Below the pieces are notes generated by a model. That model was not told the DNA's origin, did no database searches, and saw only the letters and a program-made list of their open reading frames with translations. A DNA stretch of 32,000 bases, from positions 540,001 through 572,000 of the forward strand of contig CP012986.1 of assembly GCA_001761425.1 (NCBI GenBank), read 5' to 3'. The DNA comes from Candidatus Saccharimonadota bacterium (GTDB lineage Archaea; Nanohalarchaeota; Nanosalinia; Nanosalinales; Nanosalinaceae). Positions 13,058 through 25,105 of the stretch are shown here, piece by piece. Every line of letters starts with the position of its first letter. Positions within the stretch are counted from its first letter, which is position 1. Made by a program: the position numbers and the translations under genes.

Positions 13058-15037
13058 ATGATTATAGGGGACTACTATATCAATAACTTCCTCGTTCTGG
13101 CAATAGTCCTTCTCCTGTTCGGAGGCCTTGGCCTCCTGATAGTCCCCGGTGATGCAGGAACTGGTCAGACCGATCAGAACCAGTCGAGCGGTAACTACGA
13201 GCTACTGGTGAGCGGACAGGGCCTTCAGGCCGGTTCTTTCCAGGATGTGACACTGGTAGATGATACAGGTGATCCTGTCTCGGGAATATCAGTGCTGCTC
13301 AACGGCCAGGAGGTAGGCACAACTGGAGATGACGGCTCAGTGACATTTGAAGTTCCGAACCAATCGACTGTTACTGTTTCTGCCTCCAGCTCCCAAGTAG
13401 ACTTTGAAAAAAACTTTCAGGTAGAAAGCTCCGGTAACTCGGGAGAAAACGGAGATGGCTCAGGGAACAATGACAGCGACGGAGACTCTCAAGAGGACGG
13501 AGGCGACGGAGACAATGATAACAGCACTGACGACTCCTCAGACGGAAACAACACAGATAACCCAGACAATTCTATAGAAGCAGATATAAACCGCCTGAGC
13601 CCTGAAAACCAGCAGCTTAACTCTGCATCATTTGAGGCCTCATACGAACTCCAGGCAGAAAACGCTTCCTACAAACTAAGCCTTGCGGAGCAGAAAAAGG
13701 CCTCAGGAAACCTCGACGGAGAAAAAACTGTTAACGAACAGGTATCGATGCCTTTCAACGGTACAGCAGGCCTTGAGATGGAGATAGTACGAGAAGGAGA
13801 AGTTCTCGCCTCGGAAAACCTCATAGTAAATTATACTGCAGAAGGTTCGGATGATGGTTCGAACGACAGTTCAGGTGGGGAGGATCCTGCCGGGGTTACC
13901 GCAGACCTCTCAGTTCCTTCATCGGTGCATGTAGGGGATGCCCTGGAGGCCGATGCATCTGGATCGACTGGAGATATCATAAACTACACATGGAACTTTG
14001 GAGAAGGTACTGAAGAGACCAGGGAGGCCTCGACGATAGAACACACCTACAGCAGTGAAGGAACCTACGAGTTCGTGGTAACTGTAAACGGAGAAAACAG
14101 TACAGAGGACAACGCCTTGGAAACGATAGAGGTCCGGAGCCTCCAGGAACCTCTCATCAACTTCCAGAGTCCTACAAAGGGCTATGTGACAGATCAAAGT
14201 TCTATTGATTACGAATTTGTTGTAGAGAATGCTTCAAGCGACGCAGAATATACTGTATTGATAGATCAGTCAGCTACTGTTTCTGGAAATCTTGAAGAGG
14301 GAAGTAGTACAGTACAGCGAGATGTAGAAGTTCCTGCTACAGTTTTCAATACTTCTGTTCAGGTGAGTCAAGGGGAGGAAACATATACTTCTGAGAGAAG
14401 GAGGGTAGATGCTCGTGACTCTGAACCACAGCCTAAATATTCTCTTGTATCACCTGAAGAGGGACAGTCTCTGGAGACAGTGGATTCTCAGATGGATGTA
14501 GAATTGAAATATGAGATCACCGATAGAAATTGGGCTAGCTCCGCTAATTTGACTCTGGAGAATGAAAGTTCTGTAATCTTCCAGAATCCTGTTAGTGTTG
14601 CATCAGGAAATCATACAGAGAAAGTGTCTGGTTTAACCTCTGGAGAATACTCTTATTCTCTAGAAATAGAGGGAGATGGTAATTCAGATAAGAAGAGTTC
14701 CTCATTTGAAATACGGGAGATAGAACCATATTATAATATTGCTGAATGGAATGAAACCGTACTGGATAACGGATATGAGGTAAGGTTCAACCTTTCATAT
14801 AACGTTAGCGATTCTTCCTTGCTTGAAGCTAATATCTATAACTCCAGTGGAACCGAAGTAAGGTCATATTCCAGATTTGTTGACGACGTTGGAAGTCTGA
14901 ACTTTACAAAAAGCTTCATGGAACCAAAGAACTATTACTGGTACCTCAACATAACTAGCGGAGAAGAAACAGTCTTATCTACAAAACCAAATGAAAGAGA
15001 GTTTGAAACAGTGGAGTCAAACCCTAATGACAATTAG
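13058..15037 (+). CDS. membrane-anchored/secreted acidic cell-surface protein with PKD domain and Ig-like modules
   Basis: 659 aa. Features:
- N-terminal hydrophobic segment FLVLAIVLLLFGGLGLLIV.
- CarboxypepD_reg-like segment (VTLVDDTGDPVSGISVLLNGQEVGTTGDDGSVTFEV).
- D/S/G/N low-complexity linker (nt ~13427-13573).
- PKD signature (INYTWNFGEGTEE...HTYSSEGTYEFVVTV, nt ~13895-14140).
- Many N-x-S/T sequons. Confidence 0.8.
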   Translation: MIIGDYYINNFLVLAIVLLLFGGLGLLIVPGDAGTGQTDQNQSSGNYELLVSGQGLQAGSFQDVTLVDDTGDPVSGISVLLNGQEVGTTGDDGSVTFEVPNQSTVTVSASSSQVDFEKNFQVESSGNSGENGDGSGNNDSDGDSQEDGGDGDNDNSTDDSSDGNNTDNPDNSIEADINRLSPENQQLNSASFEASYELQAENASYKLSLAEQKKASGNLDGEKTVNEQVSMPFNGTAGLEMEIVREGEVLASENLIVNYTAEGSDDGSNDSSGGEDPAGVTADLSVPSSVHVGDALEADASGSTGDIINYTWNFGEGTEETREASTIEHTYSSEGTYEFVVTVNGENSTEDNALETIEVRSLQEPLINFQSPTKGYVTDQSSIDYEFVVENASSDAEYTVLIDQSATVSGNLEEGSSTVQRDVEVPATVFNTSVQVSQGEETYTSERRRVDARDSEPQPKYSLVSPEEGQSLETVDSQMDVELKYEITDRNWASSANLTLENESSVIFQNPVSVASGNHTEKVSGLTSGEYSYSLEIEGDGNSDKKSSSFEIREIEPYYNIAEWNETVLDNGYEVRFNLSYNVSDSSLLEANIYNSSGTEVRSYSRFVDDVGSLNFTKSFMEPKNYYWYLNITSGEETVLSTKPNEREFETVESNPNDN

Positions 15038-15041
15038 ATAC

Positions 15042-15088
15042 AGAAGCTTGGTCGCCAGCAAGCTTCTAAAGAAATGCGAGGGTTTTTT
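15042..15088 (+). terminator. hairpin plus T-run between the two surface-protein genes
   Basis: Perfect 9-bp inverted repeat AGAAGCTTG (15042-15050) / CAAGCTTCT (15059-15067) with an 8-nt loop, followed by TTTTTT at 15083-15088. It could be a terminator or attenuator. The next gene's GTG is at 15091. Confidence 0.35.
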
Positions 15089-15090
15089 CT

Positions 15091-17823
15091 GTGAATATTA
15101 AAAGATTTTTCGGTAGTATCCTAATCTTAAGCCTTTTGATGATTGCTCTAGCTGTAAACGTCTCGGCCCAACAGTATGAGACAAATTCATGTAATGATCC
15201 TGATAGTTGTGACTTTAACCTAGATACTGATCCTGGAGAACTTCTAATAATAGGTCATGCTTCTGCTGATACTGGTAACAACTGTGACTGGACTTTTAAC
15301 GTAAATCTGAATGGCAACAATGTTGTCTCCACAAGAGAAGGTGATTCAGACTGGACTGTATTCGACAATCAGGCCATTGTTACTTTGAGAGATGTAAACT
15401 CTGGAAGTCAGGACATTAATGTGGTTGAAAACCATGAATGTAGCCCGAACTGGAGGAGAACTCAGGTCTCAGCTATCCAGGTTTCTAATTCCTGGGGAAC
15501 AGCCCGCACGTCGAGATGTAATGATCCTGATGGATGTGATTTCAATATAAATACAGGCTCAGGCGAGCTACTTCTTTTAGGTTATTCTTCGGCAGATACA
15601 GGCAATAATGACGACTGGACATTTGGTGTTGACCTCGATGGTACCACTGAGGCCTCGGTAAAAGAGGGAGATTCGGATACCACTGTCTACGATAACCAGT
15701 TCTTTTCTACTTTGGTAGATGTAAATTCAGGCTCCCACGATATCAACACCTGGGAGAATCATGAAAACAACCCCAACTGGAGAGAAACTCAGGTAGTAGC
15801 AATAGAGATTCCTCAAGGAATCCCCTCATCTTCAGTTCAATGTAACGATCCGGACAACTGCGATTTCAACCCGGACAGCGGAGGATCTCCAGTTCTTCTG
15901 AGCGGTCATTCATCAGCCAGTACCGGAAACAACGAGGACTGGACGTTCAACCTCAATGTTGACGGAAATAGTGTTGCTTCTTCGAAGGAAGGAGACTCCG
16001 ATATAAGCGTATTCGATACACAGGGACTCAGTACAATAGTTGGCGGAGGAAACCTCAATATTAATACATGGGAAAGCCACGAAGGCAGTCCTAATTGGAG
16101 GGAGACGCAGGTTTCAGCAGTATCTATCGTCAATCCGGATTCTCCGACAATAACAGATGTAAACTATGACAAAACAGCAGGCGATCCAGCGACAATCCAA
16201 GGTACGATAAATGTAGATATCGACAATGCTGGAGGTAATGCACCGAACAACCAGCTTGAATCTTGTACAGTTACTGCTGAGGGAGTTGACAGCGGAGGCC
16301 AGGTAAATCTGAATACAAACATCAATGGTGATTCCTGTAGCTTTTCCGTAGATAACAACCAGCACGGTAACTGGAACCCAGATGAAGAACTCAGGTTCGA
16401 GATGAGCGTAGAAGACAGCTACGGAGGGACAGATGATTTAACAGGATTTGAACAGTTCCCGGTAAATCCTCCGAATGCACCAGCACTCGCAGCACCGGGA
16501 GACGATGCAGAGTCGGTCAGTACCGGGCAGAGTCTAGAAGTAACAGCTACACATCCTGACGGTCTTGAGATGGATGTTAGGTTCTACGTAGATGATGGAT
16601 CAGGCTTCTCACAGGTAGGACCTACAAGAACAGCATCCGATGGAGAGACAGTCTCAGTCAGCCCAGGATTCAGTGAAGGAACAGAATACGACTGGTATGC
16701 GGAAGCGGAAACACAGGACAGAACCAACGAAAGCGACAGATGGCACTTCACCACTAACCACAGGCCTTCAATCCAAGAAATGGACACTCAACCGAAGACC
16801 TCTGATCACGGTATATCGTTCACGGCAACGGTGAGAGAAGAGGACGGGAGAAGCCAGATAGACAGCTGTGAACTAGAGGCATCAGGCGGCGGAGGTTCAG
16901 AAACGTACACAGCGACAGTAGAAGATGGAGAAACCCAGGAAGAAGCAGTATGCAGTGTAGACGACATCGGTTTCGAAGACAGTTCGTGGTCTCACCTTGA
17001 AAACCTTGACCTCGAGCTGACTGTCACCGACCAGCAAGGTCTCTCAGCTACAGGTAGCAGTGAGGGACAGTTCCCGAACCACAGGCCGGTGATCAAAAGC
17101 CTCGAGGCAAGTGAATACGTTGACAGAGAGGCCTTCGAGGTTAATTCGTTGATAAGGCCTGTAGATGTCGGTTCTGATGAGATGAGAGGCTGTACTGTAG
17201 TCTTGAGTGATGAGGATAATTCCTATACTGCTGGTTCGATGACACAGGTTAATTCGACTCATGTACGGTGTGAAGGCGATGACCTGGGGCCTTCGAAGTT
17301 CCCAGGCCTTGATATGGATGAGGAACTGGAGGTGGAGGTCAGAGCTACTGATATTCACGGTGGCACGGCTTTAGATTCTATCATGTACAATCTGCCTACC
17401 GGTATAGACTATCAGTACTCTGCTATGATCATCGACAGTGGAGGAATCGATTTCCTGCCTTATCAGGTAAGCAACAATGGTAACGGACAGGCAGAGTTCA
17501 GCACAGAACTTCAAAACGTGAACGCATCCTTTACAGCTAACGGAGAAGATTCCAGGAACTTTACACTGGATTCTGGACAAGTTGAACAACAGAGCATAAG
17601 GATCTCTCCAGACGTAGAGTTTACAGGTACAAAAGAACTCAGGATAATCACGGAGAACCTTGAAACAGGAATACAGAAAGAAAGCACTATCCCTATCCAT
17701 GTAAGAGAAGCACCGAAGACGACGGAAAGGCCTGTACCCGGTATAGGAACTTTACAGTTACTTGTACTGTTTGTCACAGCACTGATTCTATTTTCCGGGA
17801 GAAAATCCGGGCCTCAAATCTAA
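15091..17823 (+). CDS. large secreted cell-surface protein: signal peptide, 3 tandem Cys-pair repeats, Ig/FN3-like modules, PGF-CTERM-like C-terminal anchor
   Basis: 910 aa with a GTG start. Features:
- Signal peptide MNIKRFFGSILILSLLMIALAVNVSA-QQ.
- Three ~108-aa repeats starting CNDPDxCDFN.
- Modules of ~108-110 aa, two of them opening with NHRP(S/V)I.
- C-terminus TTERPVPGIGTLQLLVLFVTALILFSGRKSGPQI, which resembles the PGF-CTERM sorting signal. Confidence 0.85.
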   Translation: MNIKRFFGSILILSLLMIALAVNVSAQQYETNSCNDPDSCDFNLDTDPGELLIIGHASADTGNNCDWTFNVNLNGNNVVSTREGDSDWTVFDNQAIVTLRDVNSGSQDINVVENHECSPNWRRTQVSAIQVSNSWGTARTSRCNDPDGCDFNINTGSGELLLLGYSSADTGNNDDWTFGVDLDGTTEASVKEGDSDTTVYDNQFFSTLVDVNSGSHDINTWENHENNPNWRETQVVAIEIPQGIPSSSVQCNDPDNCDFNPDSGGSPVLLSGHSSASTGNNEDWTFNLNVDGNSVASSKEGDSDISVFDTQGLSTIVGGGNLNINTWESHEGSPNWRETQVSAVSIVNPDSPTITDVNYDKTAGDPATIQGTINVDIDNAGGNAPNNQLESCTVTAEGVDSGGQVNLNTNINGDSCSFSVDNNQHGNWNPDEELRFEMSVEDSYGGTDDLTGFEQFPVNPPNAPALAAPGDDAESVSTGQSLEVTATHPDGLEMDVRFYVDDGSGFSQVGPTRTASDGETVSVSPGFSEGTEYDWYAEAETQDRTNESDRWHFTTNHRPSIQEMDTQPKTSDHGISFTATVREEDGRSQIDSCELEASGGGGSETYTATVEDGETQEEAVCSVDDIGFEDSSWSHLENLDLELTVTDQQGLSATGSSEGQFPNHRPVIKSLEASEYVDREAFEVNSLIRPVDVGSDEMRGCTVVLSDEDNSYTAGSMTQVNSTHVRCEGDDLGPSKFPGLDMDEELEVEVRATDIHGGTALDSIMYNLPTGIDYQYSAMIIDSGGIDFLPYQVSNNGNGQAEFSTELQNVNASFTANGEDSRNFTLDSGQVEQQSIRISPDVEFTGTKELRIITENLETGIQKESTIPIHVREAPKTTERPVPGIGTLQLLVLFVTALILFSGRKSGPQI
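15190..16130 (+). repeat. three tandem ~324-327 nt (108-109 aa) intragenic domain repeats
   Basis: Repeat starts are at Cys34 (15190), Cys143 (15517) and Cys251 (15841). Shared blocks are CNDPDxCDFN, G(H/Y)(A/S)SA(D/S)TGNNxDWTF, KEGDSD, V(F/Y)D, (W/V)E(N/S)HExxPNWR(E/R)TQV. The repeats are conserved at protein level but diverged at nucleotide level. Confidence 0.85.
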
Positions 17824-19049: not shown

Positions 19050-19544
19050 ATGAAAGACGCAAATATGTACGCCGAGATAGATGTCGCAATGGACATCATC
19101 AAGTACACAGGACCTAGCGAAGAGTTCAGTGACAGGTTTCTGGTGCTGGAAAAAGGCCTTGAATACCAGAGGAACAGGGAGAGATACAACCCGGAAGAAG
19201 GCGGTGTTCCATGGGAAGTTCCGGGCGGAAAGATCGAACTCGACGCAGAAGAATACACAGAAAGAGAAATAAAGAGGGAGGCGTGGCGTGAACTCGATGA
19301 GGAAACATCTTTACCTGTCGAAAGAACCAATTTTGTAGAAAAAGCTCTTAGAGAGGATGACTACACTGTAAGGCAGGAGGATGTAGATATCACTTTCTAC
19401 CCGGTCTTTTACGAGTTCGAGGGCGATCCAGAAGCAGTTCAGATCAGTCCTGAAGAACACAAGGCCTACGAATGGATCACAGAACAGGAGTTCATGGACA
19501 GGATGACGGAAAACGAGAAGAAAGCTCTCAGAAGATTCATCTGA
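19050..19544 (+). CDS. Nudix hydrolase (Nudix box with insertion)
   Basis: 164 aa. PGGKIELDAEEYTEREIKREAWRELDEETSL matches G..E..REx2EExG(S) with about 6 extra residues before RE. The C-terminal HKAYEWI is shared with the tandem Nudix protein at 21067-21990. Confidence 0.75.
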   Translation: MKDANMYAEIDVAMDIIKYTGPSEEFSDRFLVLEKGLEYQRNRERYNPEEGGVPWEVPGGKIELDAEEYTEREIKREAWRELDEETSLPVERTNFVEKALREDDYTVRQEDVDITFYPVFYEFEGDPEAVQISPEEHKAYEWITEQEFMDRMTENEKKALRRFI

Positions 19545-19547
19545 AGC

Positions 19548-20249
19548 TTAGACTTCATTTACCTGTAGAAAACTATTTGAGTACCAATTATCTACAGTTT
19601 CCGGTGTCGAAGGCCTTTCGCCGTAGGCATCAGTCCATTTCCAGTATTTTTTATGGTCACTGTCGAAATCAGTCCTTCTGTATACTTCTTCAGCAGGAAA
19701 GGCCATTTCACCTATCACTGCAGTATCTATCTCATCGTTGACATCGAGGACAGGCACGTCTTCAGTATCATGTCTTCTCCTCGGGTAATGGACCACGGTG
19801 TAAAGGATCGAGTCTTCATCGGCTTCTGCCAGCTCCTTCATCCTCTCCTCTCTCATGTAGAAACCGCCAGGCCTTGAATAAAGGCGTCCTTGAGAGTCTT
19901 TCTTCCCTCCTTTCGCCAGAACTGTGGCACCTTTCGCCTGAACATAGGCTCCTTCAAACTCTCCTTCCTCCACCACTAGGTCAACTGCACCGTCATCGAT
20001 ATTTTCCATCCAGAAACGATCCTCAAGATAGTTCTCGACAGCATCCCCGATATCATCCGTGAAATCTCCTATATCAGGCCTTCCCCATTCCTCCACGGAT
20101 TCAGGCCTTTCCTCAAGAGTATCCTCAGCTCTTTCAGCTCTGTCATTCATGTGGAAATGCGGGTGCCAGCCGATTCTTTCCCCGCCCAGTGCTTCCTGTA
20201 CAGCCCATATTTCTTCTATGGATGCCTTTTCTCTGGTTCTGGCTTTCAT
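19548..20249 (-). CDS. hypothetical protein, paralogue B of pair; Hjc-like PD-(D/E)xK motif order (E...D-LVV...Q-A-K...FYMREE)
   Basis: 233 aa. Its ATG overlaps the stop of 20246..21007 (ATGA). Blocks shared with the paralogue are GWHP, DxVV, (I/V)Q(V/A)K, GxF(K/Y)(F/M)R, GxM(L/A)(V/F)P and W(Q/T)D(V/A)(F/Y)GE. Confidence 0.7.
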   Translation of the reverse strand: MKARTREKASIEEIWAVQEALGGERIGWHPHFHMNDRAERAEDTLEERPESVEEWGRPDIGDFTDDIGDAVENYLEDRFWMENIDDGAVDLVVEEGEFEGAYVQAKGATVLAKGGKKDSQGRLYSRPGGFYMREERMKELAEADEDSILYTVVHYPRRRHDTEDVPVLDVNDEIDTAVIGEMAFPAEEVYRRTDFDSDHKKYWKWTDAYGERPSTPETVDNWYSNSFLQVNEV

Positions 20250-21007
20250 ATGTAGATATCTAGATCATGTGTCGGAGGTTTTCCGTTAGCCTTCGCTCTC
20301 TGCATCTGTCTGTAAACCGGGCTCTGGTGTTTCATCTCGCCGAAGACGTCCTGCCAGCTAAGCTCGTATACTCCGTTGCTGTACCATCCGCTCTCATCGT
20401 CTTCTGGAGGCCTTTCAAGGCCGGGGACTGCATCTTCAAGTACTGTTTTCGGCACTAGCATCTTGCCGTAAAGTTCGACGTCCAGTTCTTCCACACTTGT
20501 TTCCTCTTCGTCTGTTCTCTCAACGGTGAATGAGGTCAGGCCTTCAGTGCCTTCCTGTGCTGGTCCGTAGACATTGAGATCGAGGAATGATTCGTCCGGG
20601 AGGTTATCGTAGTTGTGCCAGCGGAACTTGAATACTCCCTGTCTGTAACCTTTTTCAGAGGATCTGTCCATACGGTGCATGAGACAGGATTTGACCTGTA
20701 TTGGCCAGCCATAGGCCCGTTCATTGAGGCCTACAACTACATCTGCCTCCCCTTCGGAGTCTTTTCCATCACTGATATTTTTACCGGAGTAATCCTTTGC
20801 TACCATTCTCTCAAAGTTGTTCGCAATCATCTTTGCGTCGCCATCTCTCATCGGATCCCTGTCAATAGACTGTTCGCCGCTCGGAGGCGAAACCTCGGCT
20901 GGATGCCAGCCAGAGATATCAGAACCCATCAAACGGGCAAAATCCGAGGGATTAGAAGGATCTTCCCCATTAAGAAAACTTCTGACCGGTTCACCCCATT
21001 CCCCCAT
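20246..21007 (-). CDS. hypothetical protein, paralogue A of pair; Hjc-like PD-(D/E)xK motif order (FER...ADVVV...IQVKS...FKFRW)
   Basis: 253 aa. TATA-like ATATAAGTTTTT lies about 30 nt upstream on the minus strand. It is the paralogue of 19548..20249 (see the motif list there). Confidence 0.7.
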   Translation of the reverse strand: MGEWGEPVRSFLNGEDPSNPSDFARLMGSDISGWHPAEVSPPSGEQSIDRDPMRDGDAKMIANNFERMVAKDYSGKNISDGKDSEGEADVVVGLNERAYGWPIQVKSCLMHRMDRSSEKGYRQGVFKFRWHNYDNLPDESFLDLNVYGPAQEGTEGLTSFTVERTDEEETSVEELDVELYGKMLVPKTVLEDAVPGLERPPEDDESGWYSNGVYELSWQDVFGEMKHQSPVYRQMQRAKANGKPPTHDLDIYI

Positions 21008-21066
21008 ACAGCTACAATCTATATCAAAAACTTATATCCGAAATCATGTGAAAAACCATTGAACAG

Positions 21067-21990
21067 TCACCTATAATTCAAATCCATCTCAAGGTACTCA
21101 TCCAGAAATGCCATCGGCGAGTAACCGTATCCTGCGTCCCTGTGCCAGTCCAGCTCCAGGTATTCCTCAGGCCTCACCCATTCATACTCGGAGTGTTCTT
21201 CGGAAAGCTCTATCTCACCTTCCCAGTCAACAGGCCTCAGCAAGACGATGAAGACATCTACAGTATTTTCCTCCTCTATCTCCTCCCTGACCACATCGAC
21301 ACCGCCAGAAACCTTAATTCCAAGTTTCTCCGCCAGTTCCCGCTTTAAGGCCTTGAACCTGTCCTCGTCCTTCTTTTTTCCAACTTTTCCATCAGTTTCC
21401 TGGATGCGTCCGCCCGGCAGTTCCCATTTTCCGCTCATGTCGCCGTACTTCTTGAATTTTTCGCCGGAGGAAACTTTTTCGATGACGGATTTCTTTACAG
21501 CAAGGAAATCGCCTTCTTGATTCTGCACTAAGGCCTTGACGACTGAGATCTCCATGCCTGAGCCGTAGTCTCTCCTGTTTTCCAGGTATTTCTCGCTGCT
21601 TCTGGCAGCAGGAAGGATATAGGCTGAGTCTCTGTGCCATTCCAGTTCCGAGAAATCTTCAGGCCTTACCCACTGAAATTCTTCGTGTTCCCCGGATAGC
21701 TCTATTTCTCCAGAGAAATCCGAGCTGTGCAGAACATAGCAGTTGATATGGTTTTCATCCTCTAACTCAATCCGTACAAGGTCTTCAGAACCATGTATTT
21801 CAAGGCCTGTCTCTTCCTTCACTTCCCGTTTCAGGGCCTCGAATCTGTCTTCTCCTTCCTCAATTTTTCCGCCTGGCTGTTCCCATTTTCCAGCTGTGAA
21901 CTCGTAATCCTTTGACTTTTTCAGCATCAGGAACTTTCCGTCCTGGTTTTCTATGAGGCCTTTGGCTACCGGTATTTTTTCTTTGCTCAT
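21067..21990 (-). CDS. tandem (double) Nudix-domain protein
   Basis: 307 aa in two homologous halves. Half 1 has a perfect Nudix box, GGKIEEGEDRFEALKREVKEETGL. Half 2 has an inserted, degenerate box, GGRIQETDGKVGKKKDEDRFKALKRELAEKLGI (EE changed to EK). Both halves end with E(F/Y)(Q/E)WVRPE(D/E)..EL(E/D)WHRD. Confidence 0.85.
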   Translation of the reverse strand: MSKEKIPVAKGLIENQDGKFLMLKKSKDYEFTAGKWEQPGGKIEEGEDRFEALKREVKEETGLEIHGSEDLVRIELEDENHINCYVLHSSDFSGEIELSGEHEEFQWVRPEDFSELEWHRDSAYILPAARSSEKYLENRRDYGSGMEISVVKALVQNQEGDFLAVKKSVIEKVSSGEKFKKYGDMSGKWELPGGRIQETDGKVGKKKDEDRFKALKRELAEKLGIKVSGGVDVVREEIEEENTVDVFIVLLRPVDWEGEIELSEEHSEYEWVRPEEYLELDWHRDAGYGYSPMAFLDEYLEMDLNYR

Positions 21991-23022: not shown

Positions 23023-23286
23023 TTAGGCCTTTTGGTTGGAGCTGTTGCTGTAAACTTTTTCTCCTTCGAGGAAAATTTTTCCATCTTCGTCTAGCATGAG
23101 TGAAAAATCTTCCTGGAAAAGGCCTATGATCTGGCTGTTTTCCCATTCTAGGCCTTCTTTCTTCATCTGTTTTTTCAGGAATTTTCTGGAGTTATCTCTG
23201 TCTGAGATTTTTTCCATGTCGATGTCAGGTTTGATGAAGATTATGTCGTTGTCTCCTCGTTCTGTATCTATTCTTTCTCTATTCAT
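23023..23286 (-). CDS. small hypothetical protein translationally coupled to ABCE1
   Basis: 87 aa from the ATG at complement 23284-23286 (MNRERIDTERGDNDIIFIKPD...). This ATG lies inside ATGAATAG, which overlaps the ABCE1 stop (TAG, 23279-23281). The longer track ORF (to 23382) would overlap the ABCE1 coding sequence. Confidence 0.5.
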   Translation of the reverse strand: MNRERIDTERGDNDIIFIKPDIDMEKISDRDNSRKFLKKQMKKEGLEWENSQIIGLFQEDFSLMLDEDGKIFLEGEKVYSNSSNQKA

Positions 23287-25105
23287 CGTCTTCGTCGCTT
23301 TCTTTTTTGATGGATTTTTGTTCATAGAACTCGTCGTTTTTCCTATGTTCTTTGTCTTTCTGGCTTCCTGGTTTGTTGGCACGAGGCCTTCCTGTCTCCG
23401 GGTCTCGTCTGAAGGTGATATCGACTTCTTCCAGGAATTCGTTCATAGCGTCTCCTATTTTCATTGGTTCAGTTGTTTTCCCTGTTTTTCCTGGTTCGCC
23501 TGTGAAAACCATTCCACGGTCTGCGATGTAGTCAAGCAGTAGAAGATCATGATCGATAACCATCAAGGGTTTCCCGGTTTTCCTCGCGAAACGCTTCAAG
23601 GCCTTTCCCAGTTCCACGCGGGATTCTACGTCCATGTAGGCAGAAGGTTCATCCAGCAGGTAGATGTCTGCGTCTCTTGCCAGGCAGATCGCTATGCCTA
23701 CACGCTGTAACTCTCCTCCTGACAGGTCTTCCAGGTTCTGCTCGTAAAGGTTTTGAAGGCCTAGCGGTTCTGCTATCCTGGCCTTGAACTTCTTTGATTG
23801 AGGGTTGACATGTTTGCCTATGGCGGTTTCTACAAGTTCATCCTTGGCCTCCAGGTACTGGGCCTTGTAGCTGATCGAGATGTCCGGAGCCTCTTCCTTC
23901 TCTGGCTCTAGTGCTCCTGCCAGCATCTTTGCGAAGGTGGTTTTTCCGACGCCGTTCTCGCCGAAGACTGCTAGAATTTCTTCCTCATGGAGAGTTCCTG
24001 CTTCTGTTTCAAGTTCGAACTCTTCTTCTCCAAAGTCTTTCCTCATTTCCGGGAAGTTGAAGGCCTCTGATTTTTTCTCGACCTGGGATCTCTTTGTCCT
24101 GTCGAAGTCTATGCTGTCGTCTCTGATTCTGAGATTATGTGTTTTCAGGTATCCTTCCAGGTACTGGTTTATACCCTCTCTTGTGCTTAAGGCGTTCGAT
24201 ACCATTCCGTAGGCAGCTGGTTCTCCGTGGAAGACATGGATTGCTGATGAGACAAGGTCAAGCGTTGCGAGGTCGTGTTCGACCACGAGAACAGCTTTTT
24301 CTTCGCCTAGTTCCTGAACTGCTCTTCCAACGTTCAAACGCTGCTTGACGTCCAGGAAAGATGAAGGCTCGTCGATAACGTATATCGAAGAATCCTTAAC
24401 AAGTGTAGAGGCGATAGCAACTCTCTGAAGTTCTCCACCGGAAAGCTCGCCAATATCTCTGTCCAGAAGATGGTCTATATCTAGCTTCTCAGCAAACATA
24501 TCAGCTGAGTCTTTCTCGTCAGCTTTTTCCAGTAAATCTCCGACCTCTCCGTCATGGAACTCCGGTATCTTATCCACCTGCTGGGGCTTGTAAGAGGCCT
24601 CTATCTCTTCCTCAGCCAGTTTGTTGAAGTGTTCCTGGAGGCCTGTCCCCCTGTATTCTTCCTTTATTTTTTTCCAGTCTGGAGGATTTTCGAATTCGCC
24701 AAGGTTTGGCTTTATATCTCCGGACAGGATTTTGAGTGCCGTGGATTTTCCGATCCCGTTTCTTCCGAGGATTCCTACTACACGGCCTTTCTGCGGTTCT
24801 GGTAAACCGTAGAGGCGGAAACTGTTTTCCCCGAACTGGTGGATCTGTTCTCCGAACTCTCTGTCGAGCCTGATCAGCTGTATAGCTCCTTCGTGAGGGT
24901 ACTTGTTTATCGCCATTTTGTGGGCCTCCATCACCTTCTCATTGTCGATATGTAGCTCTCCTTCTTCTGTGATGTGGAAGCCGCCTTCTTTTCCTGACCT
25001 GTTCAACGGATCGTAGTTGACAACTGTTTCCCGGGCCAGATCTGGCTCTATCTTTTCCTGATCGATCGCGACGATGAAACGCTTGCTGTTTTTGTCCGTG
25101 TTCAT
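23279..25105 (-). CDS. ABCE1: ABCE1 / RNase L inhibitor-type ribosome-recycling ATPase, with cysteine-free N-terminal domain
   Basis: 608 aa. It has two ABC cassettes: Walker A GRNGIGKST and GENGVGKTT, signature LSGGELQR twice, and Walker B IYVIDEPSS and IYLLDEPSA. The hinge and C-terminal RRDPETGRPRANK are typical of ABCE1. The N-terminal ~75 aa align to the Fe-S domain scaffold but lack all Cys. Confidence 0.9.
   Translation of the reverse strand: MNTDKNSKRFIVAIDQEKIEPDLARETVVNYDPLNRSGKEGGFHITEEGELHIDNEKVMEAHKMAINKYPHEGAIQLIRLDREFGEQIHQFGENSFRLYGLPEPQKGRVVGILGRNGIGKSTALKILSGDIKPNLGEFENPPDWKKIKEEYRGTGLQEHFNKLAEEEIEASYKPQQVDKIPEFHDGEVGDLLEKADEKDSADMFAEKLDIDHLLDRDIGELSGGELQRVAIASTLVKDSSIYVIDEPSSFLDVKQRLNVGRAVQELGEEKAVLVVEHDLATLDLVSSAIHVFHGEPAAYGMVSNALSTREGINQYLEGYLKTHNLRIRDDSIDFDRTKRSQVEKKSEAFNFPEMRKDFGEEEFELETEAGTLHEEEILAVFGENGVGKTTFAKMLAGALEPEKEEAPDISISYKAQYLEAKDELVETAIGKHVNPQSKKFKARIAEPLGLQNLYEQNLEDLSGGELQRVGIAICLARDADIYLLDEPSAYMDVESRVELGKALKRFARKTGKPLMVIDHDLLLLDYIADRGMVFTGEPGKTGKTTEPMKIGDAMNEFLEEVDITFRRDPETGRPRANKPGSQKDKEHRKNDEFYEQKSIKKESDEDDE

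Follow-up and report, generated by a model that had tools for sequence, protein, structure and literature searches.

What is encoded by a pair of adjoining genes, neither of which matches a named protein family, that sits among translation and cell-division genes of a nanohaloarchaeon? The genes, here called A and B, lie on the minus strand of a 32,000-nucleotide stretch of contig CP012986.1 (the window); the source is a salt-in halophile, an archaeon whose genome is small and densely packed with genes. Open reading frames (ORFs) and junction sequence agree with the initial annotation, made from the letters of the window, in that A encodes 253 amino acids (aa) beginning with MGEWGEP, B encodes 233 aa, and the two overlap by ATGA: the minus-strand junction reads ...TACATATGAAAG..., in which the TGA of A overlaps the ATG of B. 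We interpret the products as paralogous members of the PD-(D/E)xK superfamily with intact active sites and with cousins in haloarchaeal viruses, probably acting as a hetero-oligomeric, metal-dependent nuclease, and assign this interpretation a probability of roughly 0.6. The best reading of the family as a whole is that it is a previously undescribed, Nanohaloarchaeota-restricted branch of a known superfamily.

The seven sequence blocks reported for both proteins are all present, and in the same order, in A and B: SGWHP/IGWHP, NNFERMV/DAVENYL, ADVVV/VDLVV, IQVKS/VQAKG, GVFKFR/GGFYMR, YGKMLVP/IGEMAFP and WQDVFGE/WTDAYGE. The earlier description of the two as clear paralogues stands at the level of profiles and not at that of single sequences. 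BLASTP of A against B detects no similarity (best E-value 1.2), whereas hhalign of the A-family and B-family alignments aligns 187 columns at a probability of 89% and an E-value of 2.2e-6, and all the blocks are in register. Likewise, the hidden Markov model (HMM) of the B family scores A-type proteins of two related loci at 73.8 bits (P0021, locus L008) and 41 bits (locus L005). As the hhalign E-value and the cross-family match at 73.8 bits are beyond chance, we take the paralogy, as judged from these profiles, to be real.

Members of the PD-(D/E)xK superfamily are defined by an alpha-beta-beta-beta-alpha-beta core in which an Asp occupies the N-terminus of strand 2 and strand 3 carries (D/E)-x-K (PMC3424549). 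Both this topology and the placement of the residues are matched by the predicted structure of B, which was obtained with AlphaFold from a 29-sequence alignment of both paralogue families (mean predicted local distance difference test score, pLDDT, 86.1; predicted template modelling score, pTM, 0.86). In the model, a helix (residues 61-78) is followed by three strands (81-86, 89-93, 102-109), a loop, a further strand (129-133), a helix (134-141) and a strand (147-157), and the chain ends in a beta-hairpin and helices. E72 is located on the first helix, D90 starts the strand 89-93, and Q104 and K106 lie on the strand 102-109, so that the proposed restriction-endonuclease core with the order E...D...QxK is found at canonical structural positions. 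The long terminal extensions described before are likewise seen, as about 60 and 75 aa flank the core at residues 61-157. The corresponding residues of A (E66, D89, Q104 and K106) are invariant in the A-family alignment (A6) and align with those of B; A matches the core through this alignment, and its residues are placed in the structure from B because the model of A itself is poor.

Conservation among homologues singles out the same positions. In a merged alignment of 21 A-type, B-type and virus sequences, the last represented by five haloarchaeal-virus relatives, just three columns are invariant: the Glu of the helix (E72), the strand-2 Asp (D90) and the strand-3 Lys (K106). The conservation of E, D and Q-K, which had been suggested as a check, therefore holds strictly for E, D and K in all homologues, while the Gln is near-invariant: it is present in all nanohaloarchaeal members and replaced by Glu in the virus proteins SNJ2 gp18 (PVEIKS) and HHTV-1 gp72 (PLEIKS). 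In our view, this exchange of Q and E at one column is what most strongly places the Gln at the acidic position of the canonical motif. The conserved acidic/acidic/Lys set of the superfamily is thus present, in a variant of the motif rather than as its loss, and catalysis is favoured by the finding that E, D and K never vary in either paralogue or in the viruses.

A search of the B model against the PDB with Foldseek, another check proposed at the outset, gave a divided answer. Restriction-fold nucleases dominate the list, with about 47 of the best 50 matches by our own count, but the best E-value is only 0.06. These matches come from at least six families (DpnI, SPARDA DREN, HincII, EcoRV, Hje and NhoI), and we read the list as good support for membership in the superfamily and as none for assignment to any particular family within it.

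Closer structural relatives are found among viruses of haloarchaea. Foldseek of the B model against BFVD retrieves HHTV-1 R4T8U9, SH1 ORF50 and HHIV-2 H9AZZ4 with a probability of 1.00, E-values of 5e-4 to 3e-3 and TM-scores of about 0.44; R4T8U9 was assigned to gene 72 of HHTV-1 by its matching length, and H9AZZ4 (170 aa) is taken to be putative protein 38 of HHIV-2. The virus genes were read from their GenBank records. Comparison of the nanohaloarchaeal profile with an alignment of four virus proteins by hhalign gives a probability of 60% and an E-value of 8.6e-5 across the catalytic core. SH1 ORF50 belongs to phrog_2095 (5.5e-40), which is annotated as 'unknown function' and further includes PH1 gp44, HHIV-2 p38, HCIV-1 ORF42 and SNJ2 gp18, and the publication on PH1 lists it only by similarity; HHTV-1 gp72, which was not itself scanned against PHROGs, is akin to this group. 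The virus proteins resemble A and B in the helix Glu, x-D-x-R, P(I/V/L)(Q/E)(I/V)K(S/A)C, a PG-aromatic motif and a hydrophobic strand, and also in a W(H/Y)xxG...(W/F)xD(V/I)F block. They differ in being only about 17% identical, shorter (127-221 aa) and devoid of the 60-aa N-terminal WHP/RP region, and their genes are single-copy, with no paralogue pair and with canonical ExK in two of them. HHTV-1 gp72 moreover has an additional C-terminal winged helix. A and B themselves have no match to PHROGs at E<=10, so that even the HMM of phrog_2095 is not reached, and tblastn of both against GenBank phages found nothing; the link to viruses came only from structure, and A and B are remote relatives of phrog_2095 rather than members of it.

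A and B share a remote common origin with the SH1 ORF50 group of haloarchaeal viruses. These orphan genes, from viruses that infect the haloarchaeal hosts of the symbionts, are the only relatives detected. For this group the restriction-fold link is the first functional hint, and the kinship suggests that genes have passed between viruses of the hosts and their nano-sized symbiont. In HHTV-1 (locus L019, KC292025.1, 46924-48311) the last base of gp72 is shared with the start of gp73, a small S-adenosylmethionine (AdoMet) methyltransferase with a DPPY motif. The gp72 protein has the canonical ExK and a weak match to an MCM-type winged helix at its C-terminus. The two genes look like a small nuclease-methylase pair, and the adjacency of the methyltransferase may be taken as a hint of a restriction-like role of the viral copy.

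The nanohaloarchaeal family is small and narrowly distributed. A joint A+B profile retrieves only 17 of 1.84 billion representative proteins at E<=0.001, three loci were found in species-representative genomes and four in JGI metagenomes, and a scan of IMG/VR yielded no relatives (0). Every locus that can be placed belongs to Nanohaloarchaea, according to named metagenome-assembled genome (MAG) records, or shows the same ABCE1-AlaX-S17e synteny. The statement that no named family fits is borne out, as A and B have no match in Pfam, NCBIfam, PHROG, PADLOC or the PDB sequences, and Pfam gives nothing recurrent on all 24 family members. The one trace in databases is a set of precomputed matches of PF25941 ('PDDEXK_16') to the A-type proteins P0007, P0021 and P0030, which are weak or faint and were not reproduced by hmmscan.

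In the window, the pair is surrounded by genes for FtsZ, a NusA-like KH protein, ABCE1, a short-chain dehydrogenase and a fused double Nudix protein, by a convergent single Nudix gene, and by genes for AlaX, ribosomal protein S17e, large PKD-repeat surface proteins, methionyl-tRNA synthetase and another class I aminoacyl-tRNA synthetase. The locus had been considered native, and the occurrence of homologues in the same ABCE1-AlaX-S17e slot, together with a normal density of the palindrome AGGCCT, bears this out. Every member was typed with the A and B HMMs and its neighbours were marked, in each case at the level of the locus (Table 1). Where A and B are adjacent, their junctions measure -4 to +4 nucleotides (nt) in five of five loci, with ATGA in the window and L001 and a spacer of 2-4 nt in L005, L021 and L023, and tight coupling is conserved among them. 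Other loci carry only B (L007, L015, L016) or only A (L008, L010, L009) in the same slot, which weakens the earlier suggestion of an obligate heterodimer. A single paralogue can evidently fill the slot, and unless the missing copy lies elsewhere in these genomes this fits a homodimeric ancestor followed by lineage-specific duplication rather than an obligate pair. Genomes with A only, B only and both provide a natural series for the transition from a homodimeric nuclease to a two-gene enzyme.

Because Nanohaloarchaeota live as obligate ectosymbionts and have reduced genomes, a gene that occurs across the phylum in a stable position and retains an intact nuclease site likely has a basic role in their metabolism of DNA or RNA. 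The A/B pair is probably an active nuclease, and its likeliest mechanism would be the divalent-metal-dependent hydrolysis of nucleic-acid phosphodiester bonds. Each paralogue keeps a complete set of residues, with Gln at a position that in most members of the superfamily is Glu or Asp. The Glu on the first core helix and the Asp at the start of strand 2 would hold the metal, the Lys of Gln-x-Lys on strand 3 would activate or position a water molecule, and the Gln would form hydrogen bonds to the scissile phosphate or to the shell of the metal. We infer this activity and its metal dependence as well as DNA as substrate and the oligomeric state, whereas the genes with their coupling and paralogy, the topology of the B model, the invariant residues, the phyletic restriction and the kinship with the virus proteins are seen in the data. 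A and B are translationally coupled and presumably co-transcribed, and both products appear catalytically competent. In this organism they would therefore probably assemble, in the manner of dimeric PD-(D/E)xK nucleases, into a hetero-oligomer that has two active sites. Since related genomes have one paralogue alone, either A or B, at this locus, the ancestor was probably a single gene whose product formed a homodimer.

Several observations weigh against this interpretation of A and B as a nuclease. No single match of the B model to a solved nuclease in the PDB is significant (TM-scores 0.2-0.4), no Pfam family reaches threshold, and phmmer and hmmsearch with the single proteins, the family profile and a virus-inclusive profile found nothing at threshold among PDB sequences. 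The AlphaFold model of A, built with 17 sequences, reaches a pLDDT of only 44, and its Foldseek run returned noise. Both proteins are strongly acidic (pI 4.5), which is normal for a salt-in halophile and is no positive sign of nucleic-acid binding. Catalysis by A, B and the virus relatives is a prediction from conserved residues, and the hetero-oligomer is likewise putative: co-occurrence of both subunit genes, as tested at the locus level, is not constant, and loci with one paralogue, as well as those in which another gene separates A from B (L002/L003), show that tight pairing is not universal.

The more specific readings of the locus have to be weighed against the same evidence. The initial annotation likened the motif order to the core of Hjc, and A and B could be a divergent, heterodimeric Hjc-type Holliday-junction resolvase that possibly replaces canonical Hjc in Nanohaloarchaeota. 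The order of helix-1 Glu, strand-2 Asp and strand-3 x-K followed by a short strand and a helix is indeed shared (B model compared with the 1GEF sequence), Hje (1ob8) is among the Foldseek matches (target-normalised TM-score 0.39), the matches from BFVD include a phage resolvase (E-value 0.17), and the stable housekeeping neighbourhood would suit a resolvase. Yet the A, B, joint and virus-inclusive profiles align with Hjc/Hje at probabilities of only 0.1-0.6% (E-values 0.1-0.4), in comparisons whose sensitivity is limited by a thin profile of four solved sequences (1GEF, 2WCZ, 1OB8 and 4TKD). PF01870 matches neither A and B nor other family members, Hje ranks eleventh behind type II restriction enzymes and SPARDA DREN (none of these Foldseek matches being significant), and A and B are about twice as long as Hjc (253/233 aa versus 120-145 aa). 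HHTV-1, furthermore, encodes its own annotated Holliday-junction resolvase, gp65, in addition to the homologue gp72. A and B are therefore Hjc-like only generically, through the minimal common core, and we consider a specific kinship unlikely. An HMM of Hjc found no match in about 180 kb of nanohaloarchaeal and viral loci, a sample far too small to mean anything, and literature searches on Hjc in Nanohaloarchaeota returned nothing usable. A related proposal, in which a Nanohaloarchaeota-specific, structure-selective recombination or repair nuclease was acquired from or shared with viruses, replaced Hjc non-orthologously and was duplicated into an asymmetric heterodimer, is tenable because fold and active site fit and the gene has a stable position within the core genome; we nevertheless rate it as very improbable.

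The composition of the Foldseek list, with DpnI, HincII, EcoRV, NhoI and the SPARDA DREN effector as best matches, could instead indicate a defence nuclease, of the sequence-specific restriction type or another, that would be heterodimeric like BbvCI or Bpu10I. The methyltransferase gp73 directly abutting the viral homologue and the AAA_15/AAA_21 ATPase gene near the pair in L002 would agree with it. This is improbable for the nanohaloarchaeal genes, since neither the window nor any related nanohaloarchaeal locus examined has a methyltransferase gene next to A or B, PADLOC matches neither protein, IMG/VR viral contigs carry no relatives, the AGGCCT density at the pair is native, and the same slot (ABCE1 ... 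AlaX-S17e) is kept across homologues that are only 35-50% identical, which is unlike a mobile defence island. Alternatively, the fold might have been recruited elsewhere, into an RNA or tRNA nuclease, an enzyme that degrades acquired host DNA for nucleotide salvage together with Nudix, or a non-catalytic binder. Translation-related neighbours (ABCE1, AlaX, S17e, aminoacyl-tRNA synthetases), the Nudix genes flanking A and B in one clade and the Gln in place of the canonical Glu can each be read in this direction, and the superfamily includes both RNases and inactive members (PMC3424549). The neighbourhood, though, is the conserved synteny of a reduced genome with genes in mixed orientations, B and the downstream Nudix gene being convergent; most of the other architectures have no Nudix genes; the invariance of E, D and K is strict; and the Foldseek best 50 include no tRNA-splicing endonuclease. 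Inspection by eye, without a computed prediction, revealed no signal peptide. We therefore hold these uses of the fold to be doubtful, and an active nuclease of its own family remains our preferred interpretation.

Table 1. Features of the A/B locus in the window and distribution of the locus types among related loci (own locus numbers).
Feature	Position in window, or loci	Strand	Basis
Gene A, A-type paralogue	20246..21007	-	ORF; 7 homologues at 49-98% identity, common start; HMM class A-type
Gene B, B-type paralogue	19548..20249	-	ORF; 11 homologues at 50-97% identity; AlphaFold model
ATGA overlap of A stop and B start codons (translational coupling)	20246..20249	-	sequence; same overlap in L001
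Spacer between tandem Nudix gene and gene A, 59 nt, with A/T-rich TATA-like boxes	21008..21066	-	sequence reading
Predicted catalytic core of A: E66 20810-20812, D89 20741-20743, Q104 20696-20698, K106 20690-20692	20690..20812	-	codons and alignment
Predicted catalytic core of B: E72 20034-20036, D90 19980-19982, Q104 19938-19940, K106 19932-19934	19932..20036	-	codons and B model
A and B adjoining AlaX	window, L001, L005, L021, L023		
B alone, between ABCE1 (or dehydrogenase) and AlaX	L007/L022, L015, L016 (complete genome CP046106.1)		
A alone, adjoining AlaX or S17e	L008, L010, L009		
A, unrelated 362-aa acidic protein, B, in a different neighbourhood	L002, L003/L004		

The spacer upstream of gene A contains a TATA-like box, GATATAA, at 21032-21038 (25-31 nt 5' of the ATG of A) and a second one, TTTTTGATATA, at 21020-21030. 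They may belong to a promoter.

Both Nudix genes next to the pair were considered in the initial annotation as possible working partners. The fused double Nudix gene upstream of A (21067-21990, minus strand) matches the candidate-defence model PDC-S07 of PADLOC at 5e-35, and the single gene (19050-19544, plus strand), which runs towards B so that 3 nt separate the two stop codons, matches it at 3e-6; in L005 the double Nudix is present as two separate genes. Nudix genes are absent from L002/L003, L007, L008, L010, L015 and L016. As only the clade of the window has them on either side of the pair, a functional module with A and B is unlikely, and the suggested link loses ground.

Some further variation was observed at the related loci. 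In two Nanohaloarchaea MAGs (GCA_014297435.1, GCA_041639695.1) an acidic protein X of 362-364 aa is encoded between the A-type and B-type genes (L002 6851-7939, L003 6858-7952); it has no Pfam match and no counterpart in the window, and may be a third component or a simple insertion. In the metagenome contig L023 (3974-4697), a single frameshift between the VDLVV and VQAK blocks divides the B-type gene into two frames; this gene is either a pseudogene or the product of an assembly error. Directly downstream of ABCE1 in the window, a small ORF (23023-23382, minus strand) has no family match; L001 and L016 have genes of 84 and 82 aa at the corresponding place, and in L008 the A-type gene is preceded by a sequence with a similar C-terminus. 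The ORF appears to encode a small nanohaloarchaeal protein. The plus strand of the window (13058-17823) encodes, in tandem, two large proteins of 659 and 910 aa that are secreted or located at the surface and have internal repeats and C-terminal membrane anchors. PKD and archaeal Fn3-like domains were detected in the first, and counterparts at related loci have matches to PKD or ALK_LTK_GRD and glycine-rich stretches.

AGGCCT, the StuI palindrome, is the commonest hexamer of the window (1-32000), with 135 copies compared to 7.65 +/- 2.5 in dinucleotide-preserving shuffles. It occurs at 4.2/kb with a median spacing of 189 bp, R being preferred before and Y after it, in all three codon phases (22/44/41) and at 28 intergenic sites. 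The pair itself has seven sites in 1460 bp (4.8/kb), in agreement with the normal density stated earlier. The palindrome is likewise enriched in L001 (3.7/kb) and L016 (CP046106.1, 2.2/kb), and is not enriched (<=0.2/kb) in L002, L003, L005, L007, L008, L010 and L015. It looks like a lineage-specific, highly iterated palindrome similar to HIP1. A connection of this enrichment with the A/B pair was rejected, as L005 has A and B without enrichment and L016 is enriched with B only.

Compared with known systems, A and B add a further family to a superfamily that is already well known and very large, and a new mechanism is not implied. Hjc is a small, single-domain archaeal or viral enzyme with the motif order E...(S/P)D...ExK, which as a homodimer resolves four-way junctions by paired nicks. 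The Hjc/Hje proteins (PF01870; 1GEF, 2WCW, 1OB8, 1HH1) share with A and B the succession of helix-Glu, strand, strand-Asp, strand-(E/Q)xK, short strand, helix and strand. They differ in having ExK rather than QxK and one gene for a homodimer instead of two paralogues, and show no profile similarity; A and B in turn have the additional conserved motifs WHP and W-x-D-(V/A)-(F/Y)-G and additions at the N- and C-termini. Enzymes of the EcoRV, HincII and DpnI kind and the SPARDA DREN effector are the best sub-threshold structural neighbours and have the PD-(D/E)xK core and a similar chain length, but match only at E-values of 0.06-1 and TM-scores of 0.2-0.3. The A/B loci also differ from restriction and SPARDA systems in their housekeeping synteny and in being without a partner methyltransferase or Argonaute.

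Active enzymes with Q-x-K include TnsA of Tn7 (E63/D114/Q130/K132) and HinP1I (D62/Q81/K83). They are like A and B in combining a helix Glu, a strand Asp and Q-x-K, and unlike them in that neither is matched from the A/B family in sequence searches of the PDB or among the Foldseek best 50. A literature search on these residue numbers and on PDDEXK_16 gave nothing usable.

Side-by-side genes for paralogous subunits are known from the restriction enzymes BbvCI and Bpu10I (R1/R2), from XPF-ERCC1 and Mus81-Eme1, and from the crenarchaeal tRNA-splicing endonuclease EndA alpha/beta. Homology of A and B to any of these was not detected, and the tRNA-splicing endonuclease was rejected as an analogue, having neither a Pfam match nor an EndA among the Foldseek best 50. 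What A and B have in common with all of them is that paralogues which share a nuclease fold and have diverged are encoded by neighbouring, coupled genes. They are set apart from them in that both copies keep all catalytic residues and in that, at related loci, one copy suffices.

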